Positions 8,711 through 63,256 of a stretch of 64,000 bases of DNA are shown piece by piece. The notes beneath the pieces were generated by a model that was given only the letters and a program-made list of their open reading frames with translations, made no database searches and had not been told where the DNA came from. The position numbers and the translations under genes are program-made. This stretch comes from Phycisphaerae bacterium (lineage in GTDB: Bacteria; Planctomycetota; Phycisphaerae; SM23-33), in contig JBAZTO010000004.1 of assembly GCA_041661865.1 (NCBI GenBank), positions 614 through 64,613 on the forward strand. The letters are read 5' to 3'. Each line of letters begins with the position of its first letter. The first letter of the stretch is position 1.

Positions 8711-9343
8711 ATGGCGACAGTGGCAGCGGCTTGCCAGTTCGGCCCCGGCGGCGACTTCGTCCGAACCTGGCCGAAGGGATCGCTGGCGCGGTGCGGTCAG
8801 GTGGCCATTGACCTGGTCAAGCTGGCGCGGTTCAGAGGCTTGGAATCGCCGGTGACCAGCTTTGGCCCGGCGGGGATCGCCTGGCAGCGCTCGGCCGTCG
8901 AAGGCGGCGCAACCGCTTCGCCGGTCTCAGCCGACGGAGTCCTGGCCAGCGGCGCGATGCCGGTCTCGGCCTTGAGCGTCCCCGGCAGGAAAGATACGAC
9001 ACTGCCCTCGCTGGAGTCGGTGACTTCCAGCCTGGCTAACCTGCTTGAGCCCGATCTGGCCAGGCAAAACTTCAAGGCCCCCAGCGGCCTGTACGTCTCC
9101 CAGGAGACGGCGGAGGAGCATGATGCGCACACAAGCTACTGTCACGCCGAGGCAACTGGAGATTCTTCGCTTCATCGGAGACTTTCGCAGGCAGAACGGC
9201 TTTTCCCCGACGATGCAGGAAATTGGCGACCACTTGCACCTGACGAAGGTCACCGCCTTCGAGCACGTCGAGGCCCTCGTCGAAAAGTCGCTGCTCATCC
9301 GTGGCCCCAAGCACAGGGCTCGCTCTTTACGGGTAGCCTCTGA
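8711..9343 (+). CDS. hypothetical Ala/Ser/Gly-rich protein with no stop codon before lexA (possible frameshifted gene/pseudogene)
   Basis: ATG 8711 with strong SD GGGAGGTGGG; high GC3 from 8711 to about 9120, then GC3 collapses where frame overlaps lexA (9120-9343); true 3' end unresolved. Confidence 0.25.
   Translation: MATVAAACQFGPGGDFVRTWPKGSLARCGQVAIDLVKLARFRGLESPVTSFGPAGIAWQRSAVEGGATASPVSADGVLASGAMPVSALSVPGRKDTTLPSLESVTSSLANLLEPDLARQNFKAPSGLYVSQETAEEHDAHTSYCHAEATGDSSLHRRLSQAERLFPDDAGNWRPLAPDEGHRLRARRGPRRKVAAHPWPQAQGSLFTGSL
9094..9109 (+). promoter_or_regulatory. inverted repeat CGTCTCC-CA-GGAGACG overlapping the lexA ribosome-binding region; candidate LexA autoregulatory operator
   Basis: Perfect 7-bp arms, 11-26 nt upstream of lexA ATG; motif identity for this phylum unknown. 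Confidence 0.3.
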
Positions 9344-9737
9344 TTTTGAGCTTCCCGACGAGCGGCCGACCAAGATGCCGCTGGTGGGCAAGGTCGCAGC
9401 CGGCCTGCCCATCGAGGCGATGGAGGACCGCCAGACCTTTGACATGGAAGAACTGTTCGAGGGCAGCGGCGAATCGTTCGTGCTCCAGGTGACCGGCAAC
9501 AGCATGATCGACGAGCACATCCAGAACGGCGACTACGTCATCTGCCGCCGCGGGCGCGAACCGCGAAATGGCGAGACGGTGGTGGCCCTGCTCGAAGAGG
9601 GCCAGGCCACGCTGAAGAAGTTCTACCGCGAGAAAGGCCGCATCCGCCTCCAGCCGGCCAACCCCGCCTTCAAACCCATCTACGCCCAGCAGGTGGACGT
9701 CCAGGGCGTCGTCGTCGGAGTGGTGAGGAAAGTCTGA
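9120..9737 (+). CDS. lexA: LexA repressor (SOS regulator, S24 peptidase)
   Basis: N-terminal winged HTH (TPRQLEILRFI...), Ala-Gly cleavage site VAAGLP, S24 catalytic Ser (GNSMID) and Lys (ATLKKF); start at MMRTQ; ORF track begins at 9045. Confidence 0.9.
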   Translation: MMRTQATVTPRQLEILRFIGDFRRQNGFSPTMQEIGDHLHLTKVTAFEHVEALVEKSLLIRGPKHRARSLRVASDFELPDERPTKMPLVGKVAAGLPIEAMEDRQTFDMEELFEGSGESFVLQVTGNSMIDEHIQNGDYVICRRGREPRNGETVVALLEEGQATLKKFYREKGRIRLQPANPAFKPIYAQQVDVQGVVVGVVRKV

Positions 9738-9740
9738 AGC

Positions 9741-9790
9741 CAATGACGAATGACGAAGTGCGAATGACGAATCAATGACGAAACGTCACG
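9741..9790. repeat. GAATGACGAA-family repeat arm (forward orientation) directly after lexA stop
   Basis: caatgacgaatgacgaagtgcgaatgacgaatcaatgacgaaacg; inverted partner at 11368-11420; complete IR copies at 30786-30909 and 34249-34380. Confidence 0.7.
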
Positions 9791-9977
9791 TGCCACATCC
9801 AAGCGAGGCAACGCGCAAGTTGGGGGTGTTCATCTTCGCCCCAAGCACACAACGCTTCTTGGGACGCCCAATCGAACATTTGCCCAGGCCACCTGCCGCC
9901 GTGCTGGCCGTGCATAACGACGGACCGGTTCTGGGCATGGAACTGCCATAGATACTGAACAAGAGGGGTGCAAAATC

Positions 9978-11168
9978 GTGAGATCAGAGAATGTAACGAT
10001 ATGGAAGAGAATACAGATCACCCTTCCTCACGCTTTTTGCATCGTGGTTCTGACGGCTACTGTCTTGCCCGCGCTTCATACTGTCGCCGGTTGGCTGCCC
10101 CAAGGTGTAGATGAAGACGGCGATAGAATTGATCCTTCCGTTGCCGTGGCCTTCTTTTCGCTGATTTTTTCGGTTTTGGTCTATTGGTGGCTGATTAGTC
10201 GGCTGCGAAAAGACGCAAAGCAAATTCGCGACCTGCGAACAGCCATTCAAATTGTGGCGTGCGACCAGCATGTCGATTGGCAGTCAGTGCCAGACCTCGA
10301 CACTTACCGCGAATCCCGAAATTTGCCGTTGGCAATGGCACTCGAAACGGCTGGAATCATACGGCCCAAACTCGAACTCGACGAACGCGAACGAGTGATC
10401 GCGTCTTGGCGTGCTCAACTCGATGAACCAGATCACGTGCGGGCTGTCAAAGAGGCACTCGAACACGGTCCATACAGCGGCATGTACTGGTCCTTCCAGA
10501 TTGTCAGCAGCGAATTCCGTAAGCTCATTCATCGTGAAACGCGGGAGCGATTTCCAAGAGAGTGCTACTTTGCAGAGCTTCACATTCTAATAGCGTACCG
10601 CGCAAGCGTGTTCCGGAAAGTGGCGTTTGCTGAAATGGCCAAAGATGTCGGGAATCCTTGTCTTGCGACCTTGATACATGCCATTGCCGAAATGGTGGAC
10701 AAGCCAGGCAATCCAAAGGAGATTGAAGAATCGACGCGTCGCGAACTCAATGAAGCCTTTGCCAGAGAAATAGAGCTTGAGTTACTCGAAGACGAAATCA
10801 AGAACTACGTGAAACTCCACCTAGAAGAAGCTGTGGTTCGCTGGCTAGCGAGATACAAGGATGATGCGGGTACGGTGGCCATATTCGACCGTTGGAAGCG
10901 ACTTCGCGACGGAGTTTCCAAGATGGCCGAATACCTTGGGCAAGCTAGGGGTTTCGCCACCGAAAGGCACGACATGGAGATGAACCTAAAGATTGACCGA
11001 TACGAATGGCTCAAGAATATGCAGGTTGGCAATGGAGCCAGACCTCGGAGTATCACCTGGGAGATGTACGAGGCGGCTAATAGGGGACTTGCCGCCTTCG
11101 CCAAGAGCGAGGCTGCTTTACCGGTCGACGAACCGAACAAGCCGACGTTGCCGCAAGAGCAGGATTAG
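9978..11168 (+). CDS. hypothetical membrane-anchored protein (low-GC cargo gene downstream of lexA)
   Basis: GTG start with AAGAGGGG SD; two N-terminal TM helices then about 300-aa soluble acidic/helical domain; GC clearly lower than neighbours; no recognisable family. Confidence 0.6.
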   Translation: MRSENVTIWKRIQITLPHAFCIVVLTATVLPALHTVAGWLPQGVDEDGDRIDPSVAVAFFSLIFSVLVYWWLISRLRKDAKQIRDLRTAIQIVACDQHVDWQSVPDLDTYRESRNLPLAMALETAGIIRPKLELDERERVIASWRAQLDEPDHVRAVKEALEHGPYSGMYWSFQIVSSEFRKLIHRETRERFPRECYFAELHILIAYRASVFRKVAFAEMAKDVGNPCLATLIHAIAEMVDKPGNPKEIEESTRRELNEAFAREIELELLEDEIKNYVKLHLEEAVVRWLARYKDDAGTVAIFDRWKRLRDGVSKMAEYLGQARGFATERHDMEMNLKIDRYEWLKNMQVGNGARPRSITWEMYEAANRGLAAFAKSEAALPVDEPNKPTLPQEQD

Positions 11169-11169
11169 T

Positions 11170-11420
11170 CCGTTTGCGGAAGGGCATGTTGATCGTGATG
11201 CCGTGGGCGGGTGCCGTGGTCGCGGCGTTTGCGACCACGAGCAGAAACGACGATACCCGCTCGCTTCGCGCTCGCGGCTAGTGCGCCAAGGCGCGGGCCT
11301 TGGTGCCTGCCTGCCGGTAGGCAGGTTGCGCGCCCTACATTCCGCTTAGTTCGTCCCCGCTGTCTTGGTCATTTGTGCTTCGTCATTGATTTGTCATTCG
11401 AGTTTCGTCATTCGTCATTC
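11170..11420. repeat. mosaic cluster of REP-like modules (BIME-like)
   Basis: Contains GGGTGCCGTGGTCGCGGCGTTTGCGACCACG (11210-11240, identical 31-mer at 56963), right half of CTAGCCGCGAGCGC element (11265-11295), CTGCCKGTAGGCAGGTTGCRCGCCCT module (11315-11345, also at 36519-36547) and inverted GAATGACGAA arm (11368-11420). Confidence 0.7.
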
Positions 11421-12277
11421 AAGACGGCGAGTCTTTCCGCCGTACGTTCGATCATCGTCACGCTGACGCGGGGGTGGCCCAGTTGGACGGCGGGCTTGCC
11501 CAGGCCGTGGAAGTCCGAGCCGCCGCTGGGCAGCAGGTTCAGCTTTGTCGCCAGCTCCAGGCACAGCCGCGTCTGCTGCGGCGAGTGATCGGGATGGTAC
11601 ACCTCGATGCCGTCCAGGCCCGCATGGGCCAGATCCCGCAGGACTCGCTCCAGTTGGAGGCGGTTGGCGCAGCGCAGTTGCGAGGGGTGGGCCAGCATCG
11701 CGATCCCGCCGCCGCCGTGAATGGCGTCGATCACCTGTCTCGGCCGCCAGCGATCCTTGGGCACAGCCGCCGGCCCGCCGTCGCCGAGGTAACGGTCGAA
11801 GGCCTCGGCAGGGCAGCGGACATGCCCCTTGGCCGCCAGGGTCTGGGCGATGTGCAGGCGTCCCAGGATTCGTTGGTCGCCGCCGCCGGCCTGGGCCAGC
11901 ACGTCGGCCAGGTCGATCGCCAGTCCCAGCGCCTGGAGCTTGGCGATGATCCTGGGGTTTCGCCCAGCCCGCGCCGCCTGCATCTCCCGCGTCAAGGCCT
12001 GCAGGCTCGGGGCATTCTCATCGATGCCCAAGCCAAGGATGTGCATGGTCCCGCCGGCAAAGGCGGCTGAGACCTCGATGCCGCTGACCAGGCGAAGCTG
12101 GGGAAACTCCGCCGCCGCCTGGCGCGCGGGGGCCAGTCCCTCGGTGGTGTCGTGGTCGGTCAGCGCGATAACGGCCAGCCCCGCGGCGTCGGCCTCGGCC
12201 AGCAGACGCTGGGGGCTGACCGAGCCGTCGGAGGCGGTGCTGTGGGTATGCAGATCGACCCAGCGACGGGCGCTCAT
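11408..12277 (-). CDS. PHP-domain metal-dependent phosphoesterase (TrpH/YciV-like)
   Basis: [12 protein letters not shown]-terminal PHP motif; start ATG overlaps cysK stop as ATGA (12274-12277); last codons and stop codon lie inside the GAATGACGAA repeat arm. Confidence 0.8.
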
Positions 12278-15209: not shown

Positions 15210-16335
15210 ATGCCACAAGAGCTTAATCTCAAGGATACCATCGAAGCCCTTCGCACCCGGATTCACGCCATCCGGGACTCTCTTTGACGTCCCTGCACGC
15301 CAGCAGAAAATCTCCGAACTTGAGCTGAAGATGGCCGTCCCGGGCTTCTGGAACAACAACGAAGCCGCCCAGCCGATCATCGGCGAGCTCAAGGCCCTCA
15401 AGGCCATCGTCGTTCCCATGGGCGAGCTGATCCGGCGGATCGACGACCTGGAGGCTCTCCACGGCCTGGCCGTCGAGGAAAACAGCGACGAGACGATCGC
15501 CGAGGCCGCCGCCGAGGCTGAGAGCATCCGCGCCGACGTGGAGCAACTGGAACTCCGCACGCTGCTGTCGGGGACTCACGACGCGGGCAACGCCTATTTC
15601 TCCATCCATGCCGGGGCCGGCGGCACCGAGAGCTGCGACTGGGCCCAGATGCTCCTGCGGATGTACGTGCGCTACTTTGAACGCGCCGGCTACAACGTCG
15701 AGGAAATCGACCGCCTCGACGGCGAGGAGGCCGGCATCCGCTCGGTGTCGCTGCGGGTCCGCGGGCCCTACGCCTACGGCTATCTCGCCTGCGAGCGCGG
15801 CGTGCACCGCCTGGTGCGGATCAGCCCGTATGATTCGCAAAGCCGCCGGCATACCAGCTTCGCCTCCGTCGACGTGCTGCCGGAGCTGGAGGAAGTGGAG
15901 ATCGACATCGACTTCGCCAAGGACGTTCGCGAGGATGTCTTCCGTGCCAGCGGCGCCGGCGGCCAGCACGTCAACAAGACCTCCTCCGCCGTCCGGCTGA
16001 CGCACCTTCCCACCGGCATGGTTGTCCAGTGCCAGAACGAGCGCAGCCAGCACAAGAACCGCGCCGAGTGCCACAAGCTCCTGGCGGCCAAGCTCTACCA
16101 GCTCGAACAGTCCAAGCGCGACGCCGAACTGGCCAAGATGTACGGCAACAAGGGCGAGATCGCCTTCGGCTACCAGATCCGCTCCTACGTGCTGTATCCC
16201 TACCAGTTGGTTCGCGACGAACGCACCGAACTCAAGAGTTCCCACACCGACAACGTGCTCGACGGCGAAATCCAGCCGTTCATCGATTCCTACCTGCGCT
16301 TCCGCGCAGCCCAGGAACGCGCGGCGAAGACCTAA
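15210..16335 (+). CDS. prfB: peptide chain release factor 2, translated via programmed +1 frameshift (join 15210..15284,15286..16335)
   Basis: ORF0 MPQELNLKDTIEALRTRIHAIRDSL ends at in-frame TGA within CTT TGA C; +1 frame continues DVPARQQKISELELKMAVPGFWNN...; SPF and GGQ motifs present; SD AGGAGA before ATG 15210. Confidence 0.93.
15279..15288 (+). other. prfB: prfB programmed +1 ribosomal frameshift site (CTT TGA C)
   Basis: tct CTT TGA Cgt; UGA at 15285-15287, shift onto GAC 15286-15288. Confidence 0.9.
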
Positions 16336-16351
16336 CAGGTATCTCGACGCA

Positions 16352-16429
16352 CTAGCCGCGAGCGCAAAGCGAGCGGACTATTTCCTCTTCTGAACCGACA
16401 ATCCCCGCTCGCTTTGCGCTCGCGGCTAG
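16352..16429. repeat. 78-bp inverted-repeat element CTAGCCGCGAGCGCAAAGCGAGCGG - loop - CCGCTCGCTTTGCGCTCGCGGCTAG, 17 nt after prfB stop
   Basis: perfect 25-bp arms, loop ACTATTTCCTCTTCTGAACCGACAATCC; second full copy 21712-21779 after trpB; partial copies at 11265-11295 and 62836-62862. Confidence 0.7.
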
Positions 16430-16545
16430 TGCGTCAATGGCGGGCGATGCGGTGTGCGCGATCAAGAACCAGCGAGCCGTCTGAGGGGCTTGGGATCGCA
16501 TTGATGCGTTGACCCTGTCGGAATGTGCGGTTAAGCTGGCCGGCC

Positions 16546-21605: not shown

Positions 21606-21711
21606 TTGAACAACAGTGCGAAGTGCGTGGTGCGTAGTGCGAAGAACAACAACAGTGCGAAGTGCGTGGTGCGAAGAACAGCGGCGCCGCGCCAAGACGA
21701 ACTAGCCGCGA

Positions 21712-21779
21712 GCGCAAAGCGAGCGGATTATTTCCTCTTTTGAAACGACCACACCCGCTCGCTTTGCGCTCGCGGCTAG
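21712..21779. repeat. second full copy of the CTAGCCGCGAGCGCAAAGCGAGCGG inverted-repeat element, downstream of trpB
   Basis: same 25-bp arms and similar loop (ATTATTTCCTCTTTTGAAACGACCACAC); preceded by 24-bp direct repeat caacagtgcgaagtgcgtggtgcg x2 (21611-21671). Confidence 0.7.
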
Positions 21780-21863
21780 TTTGCCTTGGCACAGATCATG
21801 GTCGCAAACGCCGCGGGCCAGGGCACTCAGCCCTCTTCCCGGCTACTGACCACAGACTACCGG

Positions 21864-25904: not shown

Positions 25905-27698
25905 TTACGTTATGTTAGGCCGCTTTCGCGCATCATCCTGACGAAATCGCTGCCCCAGGGCCCGCAGGGAATCATCATTAAGTTCTGACGATCTAAGGTC
26001 TTGTAGCTCACGGCGGTGCCGCCAATAAAGCAGATTTTTTACTGCATCTTCCAGCGTGGCCTCGAAATTACCCCTTTTTTCGCCCGTCCGGGACAATTCG
26101 ACCACCAGCGGCCCGGCAGAGGACATTTCCTCCCGGGCCAGTAATTCGTCGATGGTCAACCTGCCGGCCTGCCCGAGTTTCCAGACGGTCGCGGCGATGG
26201 CAGCCAGGAAGCTGTCGGTGAAATCGCCGGCGTCGATCTTCTCCGCCACGTGGTCGAAAAGGTCGGGGCGATTGAGTAGGACCTCGAGGATATGGCGTTG
26301 CGGGTCGCCCAAGGCGCCGCCCTGGCCGGCCGGGGCGCCTTGCGGTGCCGCGGCCGTGACGGCGGGGCGCTGAATGTTGCGCGCCAGCCGCCGCATCTGC
26401 TGCTGGAGTTCGCCGGAGGAGATATTGAGCAGGTGCCCGATGTGCTGGGCCAGTTGGCCGCGGCGGACTTCATCGATGGCGCCGTAGGCCTGCGAGGAGG
26501 CGACCAGGCGAAGGAAGTCCTCGATGGCCCGCCGTCTGCCGGCCAGATCTCCGCCGGCCGACTGCACCGCCTGGTATCGCCGCGCCCAGATGTACTCCAG
26601 CGCGTCGGGGGCCTGCTTGACCAGTTCGGCAAAGGCCGGCCCGCCGTGGGCGAGGCAGTAATCGCAGGGGTCCTTGCCGTCGGGAATGCTCACCACGCGG
26701 ACGTGAATCTGCTGGGCCAGGAACAGTTCCAGCGCCCTCTCCGCGGCGGCGGCGCCGGCTACGTCGGCGTCGAAGACCAGCACGATCTCCCGGGCATAGC
26801 GCGAGAGGAGGCGCACGTGGCGGTCGGTCAAGGCCGTGCCCAGCGTGGCCACCACGTTGCCCACGCCGCACTGGATGGGCATCAGTGCGTCGAAGTAGCC
26901 CTCGACGACGATGGCCTGGTCGCTGGAGGAAATGGGCTCGCGGGCCCAGTTGAGGGCGTAAAGCTGGTTGGACTTGTCGAACAGCGGCGTATCGGGGCTG
27001 TTGAGATACTTGGCCCGCTCGTTTTCCGCCAGCGCCCGCCCGCCGAAGCCCACGACCTCGGCTGCGGGGCTGAGGATGGGGAACATCAGGCGGTTGCGGA
27101 AGCGGTCATAGCAGCCGGCCCGCTCTTCGCGCCGGGCCACCAGCCCAGCCGCCACCAACTGGTTCTCGCCGATGCGGTCCCGCATGGCCGAGCGCAGGAG
27201 GGCGTCCCACGAGTCCGGCGCATAGCCGAGCCCAAAGCGTGCGATGGACTCGTCGCTCAGGCCGCGCTTGCGGACGTAGGCCAGCGCTTCCGCCCCGGCC
27301 GGCGTGTGGAGCTGGCTGCGGAAGAAACGCGCGGCGTAGGTGGTCACGGCGATCAGGTCGCTGCGCGACAGGCCCCCTTCGGGAGGCGGGGCGGTGACCG
27401 ATTCCCGCGGCAGGGGGATGTTGGCCCGCTCGGCCAGCGTCTGCACGGCCTCGGGGAAGGAGAATTTTTCGTAGAGCTGGAGGAACTGGAAGACCCCGCC
27501 GCCGGCCCCGCACGCAAAGCACTTGAAGATCTGCTTGGTCGGCGAGACGTTCATCGATGGCTTCTTGTCGTCGTGGAAGGGGCAGAGGCCCAGGAACTCC
27601 TTGCCGCGCTTCTTCAAGGCGACGTACTGGCCGATCAGGTCGACGATGTCCGTCGCCTGGGCCACCTGCTGAATGAACTGTTCGGTAAACCGGGCCAT
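25905..27698 (-). CDS. dnaG: DNA primase
   Basis: Zn-finger CPFHDDKKPS...FKCFACGAGG, TOPRIM region EGYFD; upstream of rpoD in classical dnaG-rpoD arrangement. Confidence 0.93.
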   Translation of the reverse strand: MARFTEQFIQQVAQATDIVDLIGQYVALKKRGKEFLGLCPFHDDKKPSMNVSPTKQIFKCFACGAGGGVFQFLQLYEKFSFPEAVQTLAERANIPLPRESVTAPPPEGGLSRSDLIAVTTYAARFFRSQLHTPAGAEALAYVRKRGLSDESIARFGLGYAPDSWDALLRSAMRDRIGENQLVAAGLVARREERAGCYDRFRNRLMFPILSPAAEVVGFGGRALAENERAKYLNSPDTPLFDKSNQLYALNWAREPISSSDQAIVVEGYFDALMPIQCGVGNVVATLGTALTDRHVRLLSRYAREIVLVFDADVAGAAAAERALELFLAQQIHVRVVSIPDGKDPCDYCLAHGGPAFAELVKQAPDALEYIWARRYQAVQSAGGDLAGRRRAIEDFLRLVASSQAYGAIDEVRRGQLAQHIGHLLNISSGELQQQMRRLARNIQRPAVTAAAPQGAPAGQGGALGDPQRHILEVLLNRPDLFDHVAEKIDAGDFTDSFLAAIAATVWKLGQAGRLTIDELLAREEMSSAGPLVVELSRTGEKRGNFEATLEDAVKNLLYWRHRRELQDLRSSELNDDSLRALGQRFRQDDARKRPNIT

Positions 27699-27715: not shown

Positions 27716-27935
27716 ATCACAGAGGGCACGGAGATCACAAAGATCACGGAGAATGGCAAACAGGGAAAGCACGAAGCCAAGGTACGACGAATCGTGCAAA
27801 GGTCAGGAACCGGACACTGCAAAGCCACCAGGCTCGTTGTTCTTTTTTCTGGTTTTTTCTGGCTTTCCGATAGGCACTATTCTCTCTTCAGCTTCTCTTT
27901 GTGATCTCTGTGTCCTTCGTGAGCTTTGTGATAGC
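27716..27935. repeat. 9-bp-periodic inverted-repeat element between dnaG start and rnhA end
   Basis: cacagaggg cacggagat cacaaagat cacggagaa [130-bp spacer with T-rich run] ctctttgtgatctctgtgtccttcgtgagctttgtgatagc. Confidence 0.65.
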
Positions 27936-27941
27936 TGTTGT

Positions 27942-28358
27942 CTATTCCGCCGCGTCGCCGACGGAGCGTTTACTGTCCAGGGCCTGGTTGACCAGGGCGT
28001 CGGCATCGACGTTTTCCTCGCGGCGCACGTGGCGGTAGGTGCAGCGGGCAAAGCCGCGGGCCAGTTGCTGCGCCTCCTGGTAGAGCGGCTGGAGGCCGGC
28101 GTTCTTGACCCGGTATCGCCCGGTCATCTGGCGCACCAGCAGCTCCGAATCGCTGACGACCTCGACCTCGCGGGCGCCGAGCTTGCCGGCCGCCTTCAGG
28201 CCGCCCAGCAGCCCGCTGTACTCGGCAACGTTATTGGTGGCCTGGCCGAGAAAAAGGCCGGCCTCGTGAATGACCGTGCCGTCGTCGGCCGTGATGACGA
28301 TGCCCGCAGCCGCCGGCCCTGGATTTCCCCTGCTGCCTCCGTCGATATGGATGGTCAC
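27942..28358 (-). CDS. rnhA: ribonuclease HI
   Basis: TIHIDGGSRGNPGPAAAG...NNVAEYSGLL...VVSDSELLVRQM RNase H fold motifs (DEDD); start taken at GTG (VTIHID); ORF track extends to 28403. Confidence 0.8.
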   Translation of the reverse strand: MTIHIDGGSRGNPGPAAAGIVITADDGTVIHEAGLFLGQATNNVAEYSGLLGGLKAAGKLGAREVEVVSDSELLVRQMTGRYRVKNAGLQPLYQEAQQLARGFARCTYRHVRREENVDADALVNQALDSKRSVGDAAE

Positions 28359-28568
28359 ATGCAAGATACTTCTCCGCTGAATAACTGACTTAAGAATAGC
28401 CACGAATTGCGAAAATTACGCAAGTCCTTCGTAGTTCGAAGAAGGCCTATCCGCCCTGTCTCCTCGCCCAACTATAGGGGATGATGGTAGCGGGAGCAAC
28501 CCTGGCCGCAGTAGAATTGAAAGTATTCATACAATTCGCGTAATTCGCGTCTAAGGCTTTCTTGGCGG

Positions 28569-29321
28569 CTACTGGGTCCGCGACCCCTCAACCTGTGGCT
28601 GGAGATACAGGATTTTTCCGCAGTTGTCGCAGGTGCGAAGCTCGTCTCGCGTTTGCAGGACGTTGGCATGTTCGGCATTGAGGCTCATGTAGCAGCCGCC
28701 GCAGATGTACTCGTGTGGAGGCTTGCGGCCGTGGATTTCAATCACGGCCATTCCTTCGCCGTCGTTGCTCTCGGCGATGCGGTCAAAGATGCTCAATGCC
28801 GTCCGCGGCACGACCTTGGCGGCCTCGTCGCGCTTGGCCTGAAGGTCGGCCATCAGGGCCTCGAGCTTGGTCACTTCGGCGGCGCTGGCCTGCTCGATTT
28901 CCGCCAGGCGGCCCTTTTCGACCTCCGTCAGTGCGGCGGCCTTTTCCACCTCGGCCTTGAGGGTGTCGCAGTCTCCCATGACCCGCAGGGCTTCCTCTTC
29001 GGTCTTGGCGTTGTCGGCCTTGTAGGTGTTGATCTGCGTGAGGATGGCCGCGTATTCCTTGTTGGTCTTGGCCGAGTTGAGGGACGTGCGGAGCTTGACG
29101 ACCTGCTCTTCCTTGACCTTGAGATCCAGGGAGAAGCGGTCCCCATCCTTGCGGCGGTTCATGAGCTTTTCGTTGAGGGCGGCGTGGTTGGCGGCCAGTT
29201 GCTCCAGGCGATTCTTCTGGGCGGTGACCGCGTTCTTCCGGCTCGAAAGCCTTGACCGCACGGTCGCCAGTTGGCGTTCAATGGATTGCAGATGGAGTAA
29301 AGCCTCAAGCATCTTGGCCAT
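28569..29321 (-). CDS. zinc-ribbon / coiled-coil protein (COG1579 family)
   Basis: long coiled coil followed by C-terminal CGGC...CDNCGK zinc ribbon. Confidence 0.75.
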   Translation of the reverse strand: MAKMLEALLHLQSIERQLATVRSRLSSRKNAVTAQKNRLEQLAANHAALNEKLMNRRKDGDRFSLDLKVKEEQVVKLRTSLNSAKTNKEYAAILTQINTYKADNAKTEEEALRVMGDCDTLKAEVEKAAALTEVEKGRLAEIEQASAAEVTKLEALMADLQAKRDEAAKVVPRTALSIFDRIAESNDGEGMAVIEIHGRKPPHEYICGGCYMSLNAEHANVLQTRDELRTCDNCGKILYLQPQVEGSRTQ

Positions 29322-29550
29322 GCAATTGCCCTCTTTACTTGTGATGGTTGTCCAAACAGTGCATTATCAGTCTTGTGAGGATGAAATTCAAGGTCTTTTC
29401 TCCAGAGAGGCTAAAGTCGCAAAACTCCGCGAGAGAAAGACCGGCGTGCGATCCGTCCGCCGCATGAATTGCGGCCTTGGCCTTGTATGTGACGGTCCGG
29501 GGCCGTTATCATCGCAAACTCACAGGTATCAGGGCCAAGGAGTTCACCAG

Positions 29551-30780
29551 ATGGTTCGCGTGGCGTTGGTCGGTTTCACAGGATACGGGCACAGCCTGGC
29601 GCGGCAGGTCATAACGGCCTCGGCGGAGGTGGATTGTCGCCTGGTCGCAGCCGCCGACAACCAGATGCACCTCGCCCCTCGTCGCGCAGCAGAACTGAAG
29701 GCTGCGGGCGTGGAGCTGTTCGACGATGCCCTCAAGATGTTTGCCGACCTCCGCGGCAAATGTGAAGCGGTCTGCATCGCCACGGGCATCAACTCTCACG
29801 CGCCGTTGACCATCGCCGCCCTCAAGGCGGGCTACTTCGTACACCTGGAAAAACCTCCCGCAGCCACCGTCCAGGAAGTCGACCAGATGCTGGAGGTATT
29901 GGAAACGACGGGCCTGTTCTGCCAGGTGGGATTCCAGGCGGTGCATGGCATCGACCTGGCGTGGGTGAAGGACAAGCTCGTCGCCGGCGCGCTGGGGAAG
30001 GTTAGGACCATCGTCTGTCGCGCCGGCTGGCCGCGCGACGCGAAGTATTACGCCCGAACTGACTGGGCCGGCAAGCTCCGCAGCGGCCGAAGCTGGGTGC
30101 TCGACGGCCCGGCCATGAACGCCCTGGCCCACCAGACCAACAACATGATGTGGATGGCATCGAGCGAGCCGCTGGGCTACGGGACGCCCGTGCAGGTTCG
30201 GGCCGAGCTTTACGCCGCCGGTCCGGTAGAGTCGCACAACACCGCCGCCATCGAGATTCGCACGGCGGAGGGGCCGACGGCCTACTTCCTGGGCAGCCAC
30301 ACCACCGCCGGCAGGTTCGGACCGATCATCGAGGTTCAGGGCGAACGGGCGCGGCTGAGATGGGAGTATGACATCGGCGCGACGATTCATCATTCCGACG
30401 GCAGGAGCGAACGCTCGCCGGAGGGGTCCGACAAGGCCCGAGAGCGAATGATCGCCAACTTCATCCAGGCCGTTCGCACGCGCGACGGGTCGATCCTGCG
30501 CTGCCCGCTGGCCAAGGCCCGGAGCTTTGTCCTGGCCCTCAACGGCGCGCACGAATCCAGCGGCGAGATTCTCCGCATCGACGAGAAGTTCGTCAGCACT
30601 CATAAGCCCGGCACACCTGAGGCCTGGACGGTCGTGGACGGAATGGACGAACTGCTCATCGCCGCGGCCGCACAGCCGGGCCTCCTGAGCGACCTGCCCA
30701 ACGCGCCATCCTGGGCGCGGAAGACTCAGGCCTTCGACCTGGCCGGGTACAAGAGCTTCCCGCAACGGTTCAAGGGCTGA
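29551..30780 (+). CDS. Gfo/Idh/MocA-family NAD(P)-dependent oxidoreductase
   Basis: ATG 29551 with AAGGAG SD; N-terminal Rossmann VRVALVGFTGYGH and EKP motif; ORF track extends upstream to 29026. Confidence 0.8.
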   Translation: MVRVALVGFTGYGHSLARQVITASAEVDCRLVAAADNQMHLAPRRAAELKAAGVELFDDALKMFADLRGKCEAVCIATGINSHAPLTIAALKAGYFVHLEKPPAATVQEVDQMLEVLETTGLFCQVGFQAVHGIDLAWVKDKLVAGALGKVRTIVCRAGWPRDAKYYARTDWAGKLRSGRSWVLDGPAMNALAHQTNNMMWMASSEPLGYGTPVQVRAELYAAGPVESHNTAAIEIRTAEGPTAYFLGSHTTAGRFGPIIEVQGERARLRWEYDIGATIHHSDGRSERSPEGSDKARERMIANFIQAVRTRDGSILRCPLAKARSFVLALNGAHESSGEILRIDEKFVSTHKPGTPEAWTVVDGMDELLIAAAAQPGLLSDLPNAPSWARKTQAFDLAGYKSFPQRFKG

Positions 30781-30785
30781 TAGAA

Positions 30786-30909
30786 ACAATGACGAATGAC
30801 GAAATGCAAATGACGAATCAATACTCGAATGCTCGAATATCCCAAACAGAATCCCGTGGACCCTGTTGGGTTATTCGTCATTGACTCGTCATTCGAGTTT
30901 CGTCATTTG
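30786..30909. repeat. complete about 125-bp inverted-repeat element of the GAATGACGAA family between gfo and mnmE
   Basis: acaatgacgaatgacgaaatgcaaatgacgaatcaatactcgaatgctcgaatat [central cccaaacagaatcccgtggaccctgttggg] ttattcgtcattgactcgtcattcgagtttcgtcatttg. Confidence 0.7.
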
Positions 30910-30926
30910 TATTGGGTGGTCTCTTC

Positions 30927-32345
30927 ATGTTCGACTCCAGCGACACTATCGTGGCGATTTCTTCCGCTGCCGGCCTGGCGGCCCGGGCGATCGTGCGGCT
31001 GAGCGGCCCGGCGGCGCTGAGCCTGGCCTGCCAGGTCTTTCACCCCAGCGGTGCGAGCCTGCTCGATAGTCCCGGGTTTCGCCGACGGGAGGGTGTCATT
31101 GACCTGGGCTCTCGCGACATTTCGTTGCCCGCCCGCGCGTATGTCTTTCGCGCCCCGCGAAGCTACACGCGGCAGGACCTGGTGGAGTTTCACATCCCCG
31201 GTTCGCCCATCGCGGCCTCGGCATTGACGGCCGCCCTGATCGAGCTTGGCGCCCGAGCGGCGGGTGCGGGGGAGTTCACCGCGCGGGCCTTCTTCTCCGG
31301 GCGGATCGACCTGTCGCAGGCCGAGGCGGTGGCCGACGTGATCGACGCCGCCGATGAGGCGCAGCTTCGCTCGGCGGTCTGGGCCCTGGGCGGGCAGGTG
31401 CGCCGACTTTGCAGCCAGGCCGCTGCCAAGCTGACCGACGCACTGGCCACCGTGGAGGCGTCGATCGATCTGGAGGAAGAGGGCATCGTGCTGGAGTCTC
31501 CCGCGGCGCTGGCGGGCCGGTTGAAGGCCCAGGCCGGGCATCTGCGGCAGATCGCCCAGCAGGCCGGCGACATGCCCGACAGGGCATCCTGTCCGCACGT
31601 CACCATCGTCGGGCGGCCTAACGTGGGCAAGAGTTCGCTGCTCAACGCCTTGAGCGGCACGGACCGGGCCATTGTCTCGGCGCTGGCCGGCACGACGCGC
31701 GATGTGCTCAGCGCGCCGCTGCACCTGCAAGGCGGCTCGGTCACGCTCCAGGACGCCGCCGGCTTCGGCCAGGTGACCGACAGCATCGCGCGGGCCGCCG
31801 ATCGCGCGGCGCGGGCCGCCATTGCCGCCTCCGACGCCATCATCTTTCTCTGCGACATTTCCGCCGACAGCTTCGGGCCTGATGCATCCCTGCTGGCAGA
31901 GGTGCGAACGCACAACGGACGCTGCCCGCTGATCGCCGCCGCCAACAAGTGCGACCTGCTGGACGCCGAGGCGCTGCGGCAACGCGTGGCGCAGTTGGCG
32001 GCGCTGCCGGGCAACGGCGACGCGGTCCTGGCCGTCTCTGCCGCCAGCGGTCAGGGTTTGGCGGAACTGAAGGCCGCCCTGGCCGAGCGATTGAGGCTCT
32101 CTGCCGAGCGGAGCGGGTCGGCGCTGGGGCTCCCCCAGCGGCAGAAGCGGTGCCTGCGCGAGGCGGCCGCCGTGGTCGATGCCGCCGCGGACTCCCTGGC
32201 CGCTGTCGCCAGCCTGGCCCAGCGGGCCGAACTGGTGGCCATCGACCTGCGGAGCGCGCTGGCCCAACTGGGCCTCATCAGCGGGCAGGTCGTCACCGAG
32301 GATGTCCTGGGCCGGATTTTCGAGCGATTCTGCGTGGGCAAGTAG
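30927..32345 (+). CDS. mnmE: tRNA modification GTPase MnmE (TrmE)
   Basis: G-domain [15 protein letters not shown]-terminal FCVGK; start at MFDSS. Confidence 0.92.
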
Positions 32346-32418
32346 AAGTCAGCCTCTTGGAGTGTGCGATTCGATGCGGTACTCTCAACCGGTCGAAGAA
32401 CGATGCAGACAATGGATC

Positions 32419-32489
32419 GGTGCCACTGCCGCGGTGTTTGCAGCGGTGTCGGCCCCAAGCACGGCTGCACACGACGCAGCCGTGGCACC
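32419..32489. repeat. second copy of 71-bp GGTGCCAC-hairpin-hairpin-GTGGCACC element
   Basis: ggtgccactgccgcggtgtttgcagcggtg...cggctgcacacgacgcagccgtggcacc. Confidence 0.65.
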
Positions 32490-32639
32490 CATCGGATCAG
32501 ATGTTTGCTGATATGCAGGTGAACCCTTGAAACATCATCGAGCGGCGTTGATCGTCGCAGCCATCCTGGTCCTGGCCGGCGCAGCCTGCCTGGCGGTGCG
32601 GCTGCATCACTGCGGCGCTGGCAGGCCGAGTGCTTGCAG

Positions 32640-32712
32640 GGTGCCACCCCCAAACTCCGTTTGGGGGTGTGAAACGTTGGAACACCCCCAAGACAAACTT
32701 GGGGGTGGCACC
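32640..32712. repeat. architectural variant of the GGTGCCAC...GTGGCACC element with two different internal hairpins
   Basis: ggtgccac CCCCAAAC-tccg-GTTTGGGGG ... CACCCCCAAG-acaaa-CTTGGGGGTG gcacc; lies inside the predicted N-terminal extension of ORF 32527..33354. Confidence 0.55.
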
Positions 32713-32745
32713 TCCGAATTGCCGGCTGCCACATCAAATTGCGCC

Positions 32746-33354
32746 GTGGCCTGGCTGCTGATCCTGCCCCTGGGCGCGCTGGTCACCTCGATCATCCGCA
32801 ACGTCGTCGGTGTGCAGACCTATGGCACGCTGACGCCCAGCCTGCTGGCCATCAGCTTTCTCCAGGCCGATTGGCTCAGCGGCGGGCTCGTCTTTGGCCT
32901 GGTGATGGGCCTGGGCCTCGGCGGCCGGGCGTTGCTGGGCAGGCTCAAGCTCCTGATGGGCCCGCGCCTGGGCCTGGTGCTGACCTTCGTCGTGCTGGGC
33001 CTGGCCGGTGCGCTGAACCTGGCCGGCCGGCGCGGTTACCATACCGACCCGGCGGCCCTCATCCTGCCGCTGGTGGTGCTGACGATGATCGTCGAGCGTT
33101 TCTATATTTCCATCGAGGAAAACGGCCTGGGCCTCTCGCTGCGGCTGCTGGCGGGCACGCTGGGCGTCGGCGCCCTGTGCCTGGCCCTGCTGCGGTGGCG
33201 ATGGCTGGGACAATTGGCTGTGAGCTATCCCGAGGCGCAGCTCTTCGTGGCCGCGGCGCTGGTCTGCGTGGGCCGCTACAGCGGCTACCGGCTGACCGAG
33301 CTGTGGCGATTCCGCGAACTGGCTGCGCCGAAGCAACTGGGAGAAGACCGGTGA
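32746..33354 (+). CDS. polytopic membrane protein (6-7 TM) partnered with the ATP-grasp ligase
   Basis: ORF track starts at 32527 but 32527-32745 is occupied by REP hairpins; in-frame GTG at 32746 (VAWLLILPLG...) is the preferred start; stop overlaps next gene as GTGA. Confidence 0.6.
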   Translation: MAWLLILPLGALVTSIIRNVVGVQTYGTLTPSLLAISFLQADWLSGGLVFGLVMGLGLGGRALLGRLKLLMGPRLGLVLTFVVLGLAGALNLAGRRGYHTDPAALILPLVVLTMIVERFYISIEENGLGLSLRLLAGTLGVGALCLALLRWRWLGQLAVSYPEAQLFVAAALVCVGRYSGYRLTELWRFRELAAPKQLGEDR

Positions 33355-34289
33355 GCGCGCCCGCGCGTAACGGCTGGCTGCCCGCCTGGCCGGGGCATCT
33401 GCGGCGGGCTGGCGTGCTGGGCATGAACGCCCGCAACACCCAACTGCTCGTGGCGCTGAACCCCAGGCGGCTCTACGACCTGGTCAACGACAAGATCCAG
33501 ACCAAGGAACTGTGCCTCCGCGAGGCGATCCCCACGCCGCGAACCTACGCGATCCTCGACCACCCCGCGCAGGTGCCCGCGGCGGCGGAGATCATGCGGC
33601 AGGCCGGCCAGTTCGTGGTCAAGCCCTCGCGCGGCAGCGGGGGCCGCGGTGTGCTGGTCATCGCCGGCAGCGAAGAGGGCGACTTCCGCACCTCCAGCGG
33701 CGTCGCGATGAGCTGGGACGAGATGCGGTACCACCTGCTGATGACGCTGGCCGGCGCGTTCTCCATCGGCGGCCGGGCCGACCGCGTGATCATCGAGCAG
33801 CGCGTCAGCCGCCACGCCGCCTTTGAAGGCCTGGCCGTCAACGGCACGCCGGATGTGCGACTGATCGTCTATCGTGGCAGCGCCATCATGGGCATGCTTC
33901 GCCTGCCGACGCTGGCCTCGGGCGGCCGGGCCAACCTCCACCAGGGCGCGCTGGGGCTGGGCCTGGACATCGCCACGGGCGTGTCCACCGGCGGCTTCTG
34001 CCGCGACCGCAGCGTGGAAGTTCATCCCGACACCGGGGCGGCCCTGACCGGCGTGGCTGTGCCGCGATGGAAGGAAATGCTGGCCGTGTCGGAGAAACTG
34101 TCAGCCGCGGTGGGCCTGGGCTACCTGGGCGTGGACATCGTGCTGGGCGAGGAGGGCCCGCTGGTCCTGGAGGCCAACGGCCGGCCGGGACTGTCCATCC
34201 AGATCGCCAACCGCTGCGGATTGATGACGCGGATCGCCGAAGCCGAGAATCGAATGACGAATGACGAAACTCGAATGATAAATCAATGA
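33351..34289 (+). CDS. ATP-grasp alpha-L-glutamate ligase-like protein (RimK-related)
   Basis: ATP-grasp motifs VVKPSRGSGGRGV, LGYLGVDIVL, LEANGRPG; GTG start overlapping upstream stop; last 13 codons ([13 protein letters not shown]) are encoded by the GAATGACGAA repeat arm. Confidence 0.8.
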   Translation: MSAPARNGWLPAWPGHLRRAGVLGMNARNTQLLVALNPRRLYDLVNDKIQTKELCLREAIPTPRTYAILDHPAQVPAAAEIMRQAGQFVVKPSRGSGGRGVLVIAGSEEGDFRTSSGVAMSWDEMRYHLLMTLAGAFSIGGRADRVIIEQRVSRHAAFEGLAVNGTPDVRLIVYRGSAIMGMLRLPTLASGGRANLHQGALGLGLDIATGVSTGGFCRDRSVEVHPDTGAALTGVAVPRWKEMLAVSEKLSAAVGLGYLGVDIVLGEEGPLVLEANGRPGLSIQIANRCGLMTRIAEAENRMTNDETRMINQ

Positions 34290-34380
34290 CGAATAACCCC
34301 ATACGTTTCGCGTGTTTCTGTTTGGGGCATTCGAGCATTCGAGTATTGATTCGTCATTCGAGTTTCGTCATTCGTCATTA
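34249..34380. repeat. complete inverted-repeat element of the GAATGACGAA family overlapping the 3' end of the ATP-grasp gene
   Basis: atcgaatgacgaatgacgaaactcgaatgataaatcaatgacgaataacc ... cattcgagcattcgagtattgattcgtcattcgagtttcgtcattcgtcatta. Confidence 0.7.
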
Positions 34381-34400
34381 TTGAGCGAAGGACTTACAGG

Positions 34401-35252
34401 ATGCACATTCTGGCCACCATCGTTCCCGCCGAGATCAACAACGTCTACGTCTTCCTGATCCTGGGCAGCCTGTCGGCCATGCTGGTGGCCGTCGCCAAGG
34501 CCGGCTTTGGCGGCAGCATCGGCATGCTGGCCTACCCGGTGATGTTGTACGCCTTCGGCGGCGACGCGTTCCTGGCCGCCGGCACGCAGTTGCCGCTGCT
34601 GATCGCCAGCGACATCCCAGCCCTGGTGCGGTGGTGGCGCAAGTGGAACGGCCACGCCGTGCGAATGCTGCTGCCCGGGGCGCTGGCCGGCATCGGCCTG
34701 GCGTGGTGGGCGCTGTGGATGCTCATCGGCGATGGCCGCACCGCCGAGCAGGTCAAGGTCGCCAAGGCCCAGGCCAACGGCGTGCTCCTGCTGCTGGTGG
34801 GCGTGATCGCGCTGGCCTTCGTCAGCCTGCAGGTGATCCGCTACCTTCGCCGGCGGGCGCTGGCCTTTCGCCCGGTCCCCTGGCAGGGCGCGGTCGCCGG
34901 CGGCCTGACGGGCGTCTGCTCCATGCTGGCCAATGCCGGCGGGCCCATTACCACCATGTTCCTGCTGCCCCAGGAAATGCCCAAGGGCATGTATGTGGCC
35001 ACCACCGTCCTGCTCTACGCCGTCATCAACGAGGTCAAGATCGCGCCCTTCTGGCATCTGGGGATGATGACGCCGCACACGCTGTGGGCCGGACTGCTCC
35101 TGCTGCCCGCGGCGGTGGCCGGCACGTTCCTGGGCCTCTACCTCCACGACCGCGTCGGCCAGAAACAATTCAACGGCATCGCCTACTCGCTGCTGTTCCT
35201 GGCCGGCATCGACATGGTGCACAAGGGCGTCAGGATCCTTTGGTTCTCATAG
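34401..35252 (+). CDS. TSUP (TauE/SafE) family anion exporter
   Basis: 283-aa, 7-8 TM, duplicated 4-TM halves with GGxxG/PLL motifs typical of TauE/SafE. Confidence 0.85.
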   Translation: MHILATIVPAEINNVYVFLILGSLSAMLVAVAKAGFGGSIGMLAYPVMLYAFGGDAFLAAGTQLPLLIASDIPALVRWWRKWNGHAVRMLLPGALAGIGLAWWALWMLIGDGRTAEQVKVAKAQANGVLLLLVGVIALAFVSLQVIRYLRRRALAFRPVPWQGAVAGGLTGVCSMLANAGGPITTMFLLPQEMPKGMYVATTVLLYAVINEVKIAPFWHLGMMTPHTLWAGLLLLPAAVAGTFLGLYLHDRVGQKQFNGIAYSLLFLAGIDMVHKGVRILWFS

Positions 35253-56908: not shown

Positions 56909-56962
56909 GCATCCGTGCCCCCAGGACGCGACCAAGACCAGGTTCTAGCCTGGCGCAAGGGC

Positions 56963-56993
56963 GGGTGCCGTGGTCGCGGCGTTTGCGACCACG
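56963..56993. repeat. GGGTGCC-GTGGTCGC-ggcgttt-GCGACCAC palindromic REP (identical 31-mer to 11210-11240)
   Basis: followed by GGCCCTGTTT...AAACAGGGCC hairpin (57000-57045). Confidence 0.55.
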
Positions 56994-57198
56994 TGGCTGG
57001 CCCTGTTTATTGGCGGCGTGGGGCAAGTCCAAACAGGGCCGATTGCGAGGAATATAGGCGCACACGTCAATGAGAGCTATATTTCCACCTCTTGGGTTTT
57101 TCGCTGCCGCCGTGTGCCTAGAATTCGACAAAAGGGAACAGGCCTGGGATAGGTGCGGGCCCTGGATCTTGGTTCCCGGAAAGAAGACAAGGTGACAC

Positions 57199-62775: not shown

Positions 62776-62946
62776 TACCTGGTTATCGACTTCCGGTTTC
62801 TTGATTTTTCGATTTCAGCCGCCGCGGGTGCCCAGATCAAACCAGCCGTGAGCGCAAAGCGAGCGGAAATCCTGGCGACACTTTCCGGCCTCGCGAGCAA
62901 AACAGTCTACAACGTCGCCCGGCGGTTTGCACTCTCATTGCGTTCT

Positions 62947-62972
62947 GGTAGCACAGGCGTCCCGCCTGTGCT
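62947..62972. repeat. inverted single copy of the CACAGGCG palindromic unit
   Basis: ggtagcacaggcgtcccgcctgtgct. Confidence 0.6.
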
Positions 62973-63017
62973 CTGGAACCCTATCGGCGATTGTTTGTAG
63001 TCTTACGGCCTTACACC

Positions 63018-63158
63018 CACAGGCGAGACGCCTGTGCTACCACACTCACAGGCGAGACGCCTGTGCTACCACACTCACAGGCGAGACGCCTGTGCTACCA
63101 CACTCACAGGCGAGACGCCTGTGCTACCACACTCACAGGCGAGACGCCTGTGCTACCC
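63018..63158. repeat. tandem array of five 29-bp units CACAGGCGAGACGCCTGTGCTACCACACT (no spacers)
   Basis: exact 29-nt period at 63018, 63047, 63076, 63105, 63134 (last unit truncated); each unit contains the CACAGGCG-AGA-CGCCTGTG palindrome. Confidence 0.8.
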
Positions 63159-63224: not shown

Positions 63225-63256
63225 ACGTGGTCGCAAACGCCGCGACCACGGCACCT
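63225..63256. repeat. CGTGGTCGC-aaacgcc-GCGACCACG palindromic REP
   Basis: cacgtggtcgcaaacgccgcgaccacggcacc; preceded by CAGGGGCGC...GCGCCCCTG hairpin (63169-63202). Confidence 0.5.

Follow-up and report, generated by a model that had tools for sequence, protein, structure and literature searches.

AATGACG hairpins at gene ends: a palindromic heptanucleotide repeat that supplies stop codons in a Phycisphaerae bacterium

Non-autonomous repeats of 100-170 bp that have inverted ends and many copies include the Correia/NEMIS elements of Neisseria, the ERIC/IRU elements of enterobacteria and the RPE elements of Rickettsia. Such bacterial miniature inverted-repeat transposable elements (MITEs) have defined termini (Correia elements also show a TA target duplication and known RNase III processing), fold into long RNA hairpins when co-transcribed, and can lie at or inside gene ends, where they can add or replace residues. 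Heptanucleotide tandem repeats are represented by the short tandemly repeated repetitive (STRR) sequences of cyanobacteria. Characterized here is a repeat that shares features with both: an imperfect palindrome built from 7-nucleotide (nt) units of the type AATGACG (termed here the heptad element), full or partial copies of which occur at four places within 64,000 nt of DNA from a Phycisphaerae bacterium (GenBank assembly GCA_041661865.1, contig JBAZTO010000004.1, positions 614 to 64,613 of the forward strand; this whole stretch is termed here the window). At each place the element lies at the 3' end of a gene, and at two of them it encodes the last residues and the stop codon of the host protein.

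An initial annotation of the window termed these elements 'REP-like'. Repetitive extragenic palindromic sequences (REPs) are 20-40 bp long and consist of a stem of about 8-9 bp, a 4-5-nt loop and an unpaired GTAG or CGTC tag (PMC3733652). They occur mostly between codirectional and convergent open reading frames (ORFs), at a distance from 3' ends that is usually below 20 bp (Di Nocera, De Gregorio and Rocco 2013, PMC3733652); the ORFs on their flanks often take a stop codon from REP termini, and coding copies also exist (PMC3733652). Because REPs are documented to do so, the donation of stop codons and C-terminal residues by a palindromic repeat is a known phenomenon. The heptad element resembles REPs and the bacterial interspersed mosaic elements (BIMEs) in being an intergenic palindrome of codirectional and convergent spacers, in lying close to 3' ends (as is so for all four window copies and in other genomes), in donating stop codons and in lacking a target duplication. 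Unlike them, however, it is 125-130 bp long with 35-45-nt arms of tandem 7-nt units; it has no GTAG, and its CGTC is present in every unit, base-paired and repeated, rather than as a terminal tag; and it gives TGA in all three frames, whereas a REP gives a single terminal TAG. No Y1 transposase (RAYT) was found among 18 scanned window ORFs, nor is a RAYT association known for the heptad element. On account of its size, its stem/loop geometry and its lack of an unpaired tag, the element falls outside the definition of a REP, so that the term 'REP-like' is apt only loosely, for gene-end position and stop donation.

In being shorter than about 300 bp, non-coding and bounded by inverted ends, and in occurring as two full and two half copies within 64 kb, the heptad element conforms to a MITE-type repeat. 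It differs from Correia, ERIC and RPE elements in that neither a target duplication nor a cognate transposase is known for it, in that its arms are internally periodic (7 nt), and in that its arm motif is common to several phyla. A further point of comparison is provided by the TAACTGA repeats, which are intergenic and occur in Beggiatoaceae, Cyanobacteria and Bacteroidetes (MacGregor 2015, PMC4679880), forming direct arrays that lie mostly just upstream of start codons, with one inverted case (PMC4679880). Shared with these are the 7-nt period, an intergenic location a few nucleotides from gene boundaries, the presence of stop codons within the unit (TAA and TGA, as read from the TAACTGA unit itself), and a patchy distribution across distant phyla without a known transfer mechanism; in contrast, AATGACG units mostly occur as inverted arms that form hairpins, and they lie against stop codons. 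No description of an AATGACG repeat was found in the searchable literature, where 12-mer matches were to unrelated, apparently primer or marker, sequences.

The repeat stands out in the window (63.7% G+C) when occurrences of GAATGACGAA with at most one mismatch are counted: 23 matches were found versus 3.2 expected, and none of 100 shuffled controls reached 23. Twenty of these fall within four clusters (9741-9782, 11379-11420, 30787-30908 and 34252-34380), two of which are full imperfect palindromes of about 125-130 nt (termed here copies A and B) and two of which are single, mutually inverted arms (termed here half copies; Table 1). Read from the outside towards the center, the arms consist of the 7-nt units AATGACG AATGACG AAACTCG AATGACG AATCAAT; in the window they begin with just two perfect units and continue with variants (AAACTCG, AATCAAT), pure arrays being found elsewhere. 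The inverted arms of copy B are 35 nt long and 94% complementary and those of copy A (30792-30822 and 30880-30910) 31 nt long and 84% complementary, with an inter-arm distance of 57 nt in both. Lying in opposite orientations, the two copies are 86.7% identical over 120 nt, and what they have in common extends to a 16-nt segment that is not palindromic (ACTCGAATGCTCGAAT) and to the stem of a small central hairpin. The element has no match in a plasmid collection.

The sequence of the unit has a direct consequence for translation: because it contains TGA and because its period of seven is not a multiple of three, stop codons are supplied on both sides of the palindrome. Reading into a perfect AATGACG array, the three frames stop after 5, 12 and 19 nt (that is, immediately, after NDE, or after MTNDE), while the complementary strand, (CGTCATT)n, has zero stops. 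In the imperfect arms of the window a stop is reached after 5, 12 and 19-97 nt in the three inbound frames, overall within 5-37 nt, with 97 nt as the maximum.

Host genes make use of these stops. (Pfam agrees with the gene names LexA, PHP, GFO/IDH/MocA, MnmE, ATP-grasp (PF14397) and TauE.) The stop codon of the ATP-grasp gene, 34287-34289, sits in the left arm of copy B, such that its last 11 codons and TGA are element sequence; the PHP ORF ends in ...LAVLNDE, of which N, D and E together with the TGA (11408-11419) all lie in the arm at 11379-11420. The PHP gene thus uses the frame that reads NDE and a stop, whereas the ATP-grasp gene is in the least favorable frame, which results in its 11-residue tail. 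Following the lexA stop (9735-9737) a half copy starts 3-4 nt later, at 9741/9742, and following the gfo stop (30778-30780) copy A starts 6-7 nt later, at 30787/30788. These observations bear out what the initial annotation had asserted, namely, that an arm at 34249 encodes the ATP-grasp C-terminus, that another arm provides the last three codons and stop of the PHP gene, and that arms begin 4-6 nt past the lexA and gfo stops; the interval is 3-7 nt, the earlier coordinates being right to within 1-3 nt. The ATP-grasp and PHP junctions are reproduced by two Logan assemblies made independently from the same sample (L002 and L128).

Table 1. Coordinates of the heptad element copies, their parts and the adjoining genes in the window
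Feature	Position	Strand	Remarks
lexA coding sequence	9045-9737	+	start codon uncertain
Half copy (single arm)	9741-9782	+	just past the lexA stop
Insert between half copies	9783-11378		1.6 kb, 50-55% G+C; cargo, not part of the element
Half copy (single arm)	11379-11420	-	inverted relative to 9741-9782; PHP end inside
PHP-domain phosphoesterase coding sequence	11408-12277	-	289 residues; P0121 100% identical
GFO/IDH/MocA oxidoreductase (gfo) coding sequence	29026-30780	+	start codon uncertain
Copy A, full palindromic element	30787-30914		fills the gfo/mnmE spacer; ends about 12 nt before the mnmE ATG (30927)
ATP-grasp (alpha-L-glutamate ligase-like) coding sequence	33351-34289	+	312 residues; PF14397; annotated protein P0001 100% identical
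Copy B, full palindromic element	34250-34383		orientation opposite to copy A; fills the ATP-grasp/TauE spacer
Left arm of copy B	34253-34287	+	units AATGACG AATGACG AAACTCG AATGATA AATCAAT
Variable central small hairpin of copy B	34296-34330		CCCCATACG...GTTTGGGG; adjoins the 16-nt asymmetric segment ATTCGAGCATTCGAGT
Right arm of copy B	34345-34379	-	same units on the minus strand; ends 21 nt before the TauE ATG (34401)
TauE/SafE-family coding sequence	34401-35252	+	directly downstream of copy B; synteny in L123, L134 and L001

Similar sequences occur well beyond this genome. A scan with the exact 16-mer AATGACGAATGACGAA (figures given here refer to the matches listed) returned at least 120 stretches in Gemmataceae, Phycisphaerae, Tepidisphaerales, Pirellulales and many Verrucomicrobiota, as well as in some Chloroflexi, cyanobacteria and Bacteroidota. 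Most are hairpins with (AATGACG)n and (CGTCATT)n arms in which AANNNCG variant units are interspersed; some are one-sided arrays, which can exceed 15 units, and pure arrays range from 4 to more than 15 units, occurring also in cyanobacteria and Bacteroidota. AATGACG-heptad hairpins or arrays at gene ends span Planctomycetota, Verrucomicrobiota and other phyla. Elements that can be aligned over their full length, at 70-75% identity, are present in Humisphaera (L027), in a metagenome-assembled genome (MAG) of Phycisphaeraceae (L075) and on a short contig (L111), and a MAG labeled 'Chloroflexi' (L018) carries a 36-nt arm nearly identical to that of the window; within the alignment of the family, arms of about 36 nt are conserved and centers are variable. 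When the center was used for a metagenome scan, the matches listed comprised the window's own locus and two chance matches.

The position of these elements relative to genes was examined by calling genes in the other genomes with the author's GC3-frame heuristic, which was checked on the window (start codons being uncertain); Pfam domains are present in 9 of 10 ORFs sampled from those ending inside arms. Where an inbound arm (AATGACG first) faces a gene's 3' end (n = 75), the median distance to the stop codon is 5 nt, with 29 stops lying in the repeat run and 49 within 30 nt; where the CGTCATT-first side faces a 3' end (n = 23), the median is 101 nt, with no stops in the run and 3 within 30 nt (Mann-Whitney p = 3e-6 for the subset in which both neighbors were called, 66 versus 22). 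Of 19 non-overlapping cases in codirectional spacers, 16 have the narrower gap on the stop side rather than on the start side (p = 0.004), and the intergenic contexts comprise 52 codirectional, 18 convergent and 9 divergent gene pairs. The outer flanks of 175 arms exhibit only a richness in G and purines, with no fixed target motif. Heptad hairpins also occur in consecutive spacers, bracketing MetRS in L018 (5116-5238 and 7019-7182) and MraY in L062 (5994-6220 and 7406-7511). Among predicted viral contigs (IMG/VR), L136 (9230-9330), L137 (680-1330) and L138 (7581-7602 and 8950-8975) carry AATGACG hairpins or one-armed arrays, which are wedged between one gene's stop and the next gene's start, one stop of L138 lying in the array.

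The initial annotation also proposed that the elements can remodel protein C-termini, to be checked by comparing the C-termini of orthologues. The arms do provide a stop codon together with 11 (ATP-grasp) or 3 (PHP) residues, and a comparison of tails among 60 ATP-grasp and 60 PHP homologues indicates what these residues replace. The ATP-grasp domain ends near ...GLLxRIxE in the 60 aligned homologues, beyond which tails are free in length and sequence; PHP tails are equally variable (for example, ...RLLAPSR in L123, a relative described below, versus ...RLAVLNDE in the window). Because the tails of homologues vary in this way, the element-encoded residues take the place of non-conserved tails. 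The alternative, that these tails are ancestral coding sequence that resembles the repeat by chance, is highly improbable: the tail DNA is arm sequence common to non-coding copies at three other loci; homologues of at most 62% identity lack MTN, family tails being unconserved; and no similar 11-residue tail without heptad DNA occurs among the 60 aligned homologues. The tails are thus not ancestral, and orthologues of 56-65% identity lack the AATGACG element at these sites.

What does speak for ancestry comes from L001, which has the closest orthologue (70% identical) but no hairpin, there being 11 nt from the ATP-grasp stop to the TauE ATG. Its protein ends in ...AETQMTNS, encoded by CAAATGACGAATAGCTGA (with ATGACGAAT in frame), and hence one AATGACGAAT is read there in the frame that the window uses. 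An orthologue with the same tail and no repeat would count against element-encoded tails, and L001 goes part of the way, in that MTN is there and the hairpin is not; the MTN is nevertheless encoded by AATGACGAAT. Since a chance identity of 10 nt at that place has a probability of about 1e-5 by the author's estimate, the L001 motif is better explained as an element remnant, its MTN presumably deriving from an arm.

The other relatives present a more varied picture. L123, a syntenic 168-kb contig with an ATP-grasp protein 56% identical to that of the window, has the PHP and lexA genes adjacent and convergent, with a 72-nt spacer devoid of heptads. Its gfo-mnmE spacer of 61 nt contains one TTCGTCATT, followed by CCCCC, 15 nt ahead of the ATG. 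Its ATP-grasp-TauE spacer of 237 nt contains an imperfect hairpin of another kind, about 165 nt long, which begins 15 nt past the stop, consists of the units AAATCCG, AAATACG, AAGCACG and AAATTCG, folds at -74 kcal/mol (z -3.7), and is aligned by MAFFT arm to arm with the window element. In L134 (59% identical) an 8-nt tandem repeat, TGACTGGT TGACTCGT TGACTCGA (1287-1312), extends from the exact ATP-grasp stop codon and offers TGA in all three frames without a hairpin. At the orthologous junctions of L125, L126 and L127 (59-65% identical) no hairpin, heptad or TGA repeat was found; and AATGACG hairpins were not found at the orthologous sites in L123, L125, L126 and L127, so that more distant relatives lack the AATGACG element there. 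That the same junctions hold short-period repeats with TGA, be they related to the element, remnants of it or analogous, fits better with long occupancy, during which the occupying repeat expanded, was deleted or was replaced, than with one recent, precisely targeted insertion. Given that the junctions of relatives hold such repeats, vertical persistence and evolution in situ may matter as much as insertion.

Carried further, this line of thought leads to an origin entirely in place, in which slippage would duplicate a stop-bearing 7- or 8-mer, the array would grow, and template switching would convert it into a palindrome, with convergence or gene conversion accounting for the likeness among copies. 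The repeat that starts at the exact stop codon in L134 speaks for such a process, as do the long pure arrays of other genomes, the solo heptads at orthologous sites and the lack of any observed target duplication; moreover, heptanucleotide repeats are, according to Mrazek (2007) as quoted in PMC4679880, the commonest long simple repeats in prokaryotes. This origin is nonetheless rather unlikely. The same 36-nt arm 'grammar' in different genera is not expected from independent slippage, and the two 87% identical copies in the window, which share even the asymmetric 16-nt segment and the central hairpin stem, require copying between loci 3.5 kb apart and so contradict slippage alone.

The explanation considered probable, therefore, is that the heptad element is a non-coding, non-autonomous palindrome of about 125-130 bp that represents the Phycisphaerae branch of a wider class, and whose built-in stops make gene-end positions tolerable. 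A ribosome entering either arm from outside meets a stop in any frame; an element abutting, expanding over or fused to the last codons of a gene would replace only its stop and a few non-conserved residues. Gene-end positions would then cost the host almost nothing, and copies may persist there because their arms carry stops in all three frames. The element would spread through an enzyme acting in trans, aided by local slippage and deletion, and would be co-transcribed with the gene upstream, whose message would then end in a long 3' hairpin.

Several observations weigh against this explanation. No target-site duplication exists at the four copies (flanks aaac/attg, atcg/attg and agcc/caag); no transposase was found in or beside them; and among the 120 loci listed no autonomous element with the same ends and a transposase was seen. 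A clean empty site was likewise not found: the hairpin is absent from L001, L125, L126 and L127, but L001 retains AATGACGAAT and L123 retains either a solo TTCGTCATT or another heptad hairpin, and more generally the orthologous junctions in relatives hold a lone heptad, a hairpin of other heptads or a tandem repeat with TGA. Precise insertion at gene 3' ends, as the initial annotation had it, is accordingly not demonstrated. Known full copies of the window subfamily number two, and the class-wide counts are founded on heuristic gene calls and on loci chosen by an exact 16-mer. Finally, the conservation of arms across phyla suggests a constraint, imposed either by a function or by a conserved enzyme, that the explanation does not include.

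Such a function could be that of a selected gene-end module, a possibility that overlaps with the tolerated-palindrome explanation and that merits some, though clearly lesser, credence. The hairpin might end, protect or process the upstream message, acting as a 3' stabilizer, as a terminator without a U-tract or as an RNase III site; or it might couple the translation of neighboring genes, in that a ribosome terminating in the 5' arm would melt the stem and thereby free the pyrimidine-rich 3' arm upstream of the next start. Folding is strong: copy B has a predicted energy of -63 kcal/mol for either strand (with z of -8 and -10) and copy A of -53 and -59 kcal/mol, with z ranging from -5.7 to -10 across copies. 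A selected role, whether as an RNA end or processing site or in ribosome-melted coupling, is compatible with the conservation of the arms and with their geometry: arms are conserved across distant taxa around variable centers; the stop lies in the 5' arm or right beside it (median 5 nt); in many codirectional pairs just 3-50 nt separate the 3' arm from the start codon that follows (12 and 21 nt in the window); few elements lie between divergent genes (9 of 79), as with transcribed REPs; the ATP-grasp/TauE junction has some hairpin or TGA repeat in four lineages; and one-armed CGTCATT arrays occur just upstream of start codons.

Other features do not conform to such a module. Unlike those of a Rho-independent terminator, the stems are rich in A and T, and ATTATTG or TTTGTATTG comes after them; neither a U-tract nor a terminator-like site was found in 30500-34700. 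Rfam gives no family at threshold, the best being the generic hairpin mir-5360 with 24 bits versus a threshold of 79. In copy A the arms pair over just 84%, with uncompensated variant units, and the complementarity of variable units is 0.59 within elements versus 0.53 between them (p = 0.1, in a crude test in which arms are often out of register). L001 and L125-L127, moreover, manage without any hairpin. A bolder version of this idea would regard heptad palindromes as a functional gene-end cassette shared across phyla, recognized by a conserved trans-acting factor, providing an all-frame stop on both sides, coupled through its RNA hairpin, and spreading horizontally, including via phage-like contigs. 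The terminating ribosome would enter the 5' arm, and termination of the upstream gene would in this way be tied to the processing of the mRNA or to the translation of the gene that follows, with the carriers belonging to phyla that make little use of Shine-Dalgarno sequences; this version is speculative and should be regarded as unlikely.

The two half copies raise a separate question, namely, what the 1.6-kb insert between them represents. Because lexA and PHP are adjacent in L123, positions 9741-11420 of the window are extra DNA. The insert carries an orphan ORF on the plus strand (9978/10044-11168, 374-396 residues) that starts with two predicted hydrophobic membrane helices (according to the author's reading of the translation) and that has no match in Pfam, NCBIfam or PADLOC. 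Among 5.8 billion proteins its sole homologue is P0242 (56% identical; L132/L133), which lies in an island beside Schlafen-like ATPase and ParA-like genes, without heptad arms; a tblastn search of the fetched loci, the 120 heptad-bearing ones included, found no match. The right part of the insert is a patchwork of fragments of other repeat families.

One might take the arms ending at 9741 and 11420 for the terminal inverted repeats of a 1.68-kb transposon encoding the gene at 9978-11168, with the palindromes as its MITE derivatives. The half copies are indeed inverted, share one arm subtype, match (by eye) at 38 of 42 positions and enclose a segment of low GC; and the whole 1.68 kb is extra relative to L123. 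Yet the ORF belongs to no family and has a single homologue, which sits in an unrelated island without heptad arms; it has no tblastn match in the 120 heptad-bearing loci; the right part of the insert is a patchwork; and paired elements elsewhere enclose housekeeping genes (MetRS and MraY, named from their translations). This is accordingly a very unlikely origin, and a composite transposon carrying the orphan ORF (ORF396) is rejected in view of the lack of a family match and the one arm-less homologue. The best reading of the locus is that a single palindrome lay between the convergent lexA and PHP genes, with an arm at each stop, and was later split by insertion of 1.6 kb into its center.

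The window contains several other repeats. A second hairpin with a heptad period (347-419) is built from another unit (AAGTGCG AAGATCG AAGTGCG paired with three CGCACTA) followed by eight T; it begins 3 nt past the stop of a plus-strand ORF ending at 343 and holds, at 403-405, the TAG with which the minus-strand ORF 403-864 ends, and its right arm, read inbound as (AGTGCGT)n, gives TAG in all three frames. GTAG-tagged REPs form an array at 62946-63157, with one GGTAGCACAGGCGTCCCGCCTGTG at 62947-62970 and five inverted copies of CACAGGCGAGACGCCTGTGCTACC with a 29-nt period at 63018-63157; it lies between the groEL 3' end (63297, minus strand) and the dnaJ start (62775, minus strand) and has no adjoining RAYT gene. 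Another palindromic family (...CTAGCCGCGAGCGCAAAGCGAGCGG / CCGCTCGCTTTGCGCTCGCGGCTAG..., with 31-36-nt arms and a 28-nt loop) is found at 16346-16435, at 21691-21790 and, in part, at 11255-11290, its first copy beginning 11 nt past the stop of a release-factor gene (15331-16335). The small hairpin GTGGTCGC-N6-GCGACCAC occurs at 11213-11240 (within the low-GC insert), 56958-57004 and 63228-63250 (beside the REP array). The spacer between mnmE and a 7TM transglutaminase-like gene contains a palindrome with 31-nt arms (GGTGCCACCCCCAAAC.../...GGGGGTGGCACC) at 32640-32712. Lastly, an imperfect inverted repeat at 27717-27922, whose 27-nt arms are 85% complementary and 152 nt apart, is located in the spacer between two minus-strand genes, upstream of that at 25905-27698 and downstream of that at 27942-28403, the latter being RNase H-like.

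With stop donation as such familiar from REPs, what is new here is the 7-nt-unit architecture, with TGA in all three frames toward both neighbors, and its reach, against stop codons, across Planctomycetota, Verrucomicrobiota, Chloroflexi, cyanobacteria, Bacteroidota and some viral contigs. For annotation, this means that the C-terminal extensions of proteins in these phyla that read, for example, MTNDE... derive from repeats; for assembly, it means that contigs tend to break at heptad elements, as do the L002 and L128 contigs, both of which end within or beside repeats. If these elements are more than tolerated DNA, then they would be a candidate means to mark gene ends, or to couple neighboring genes, in poorly studied phyla.

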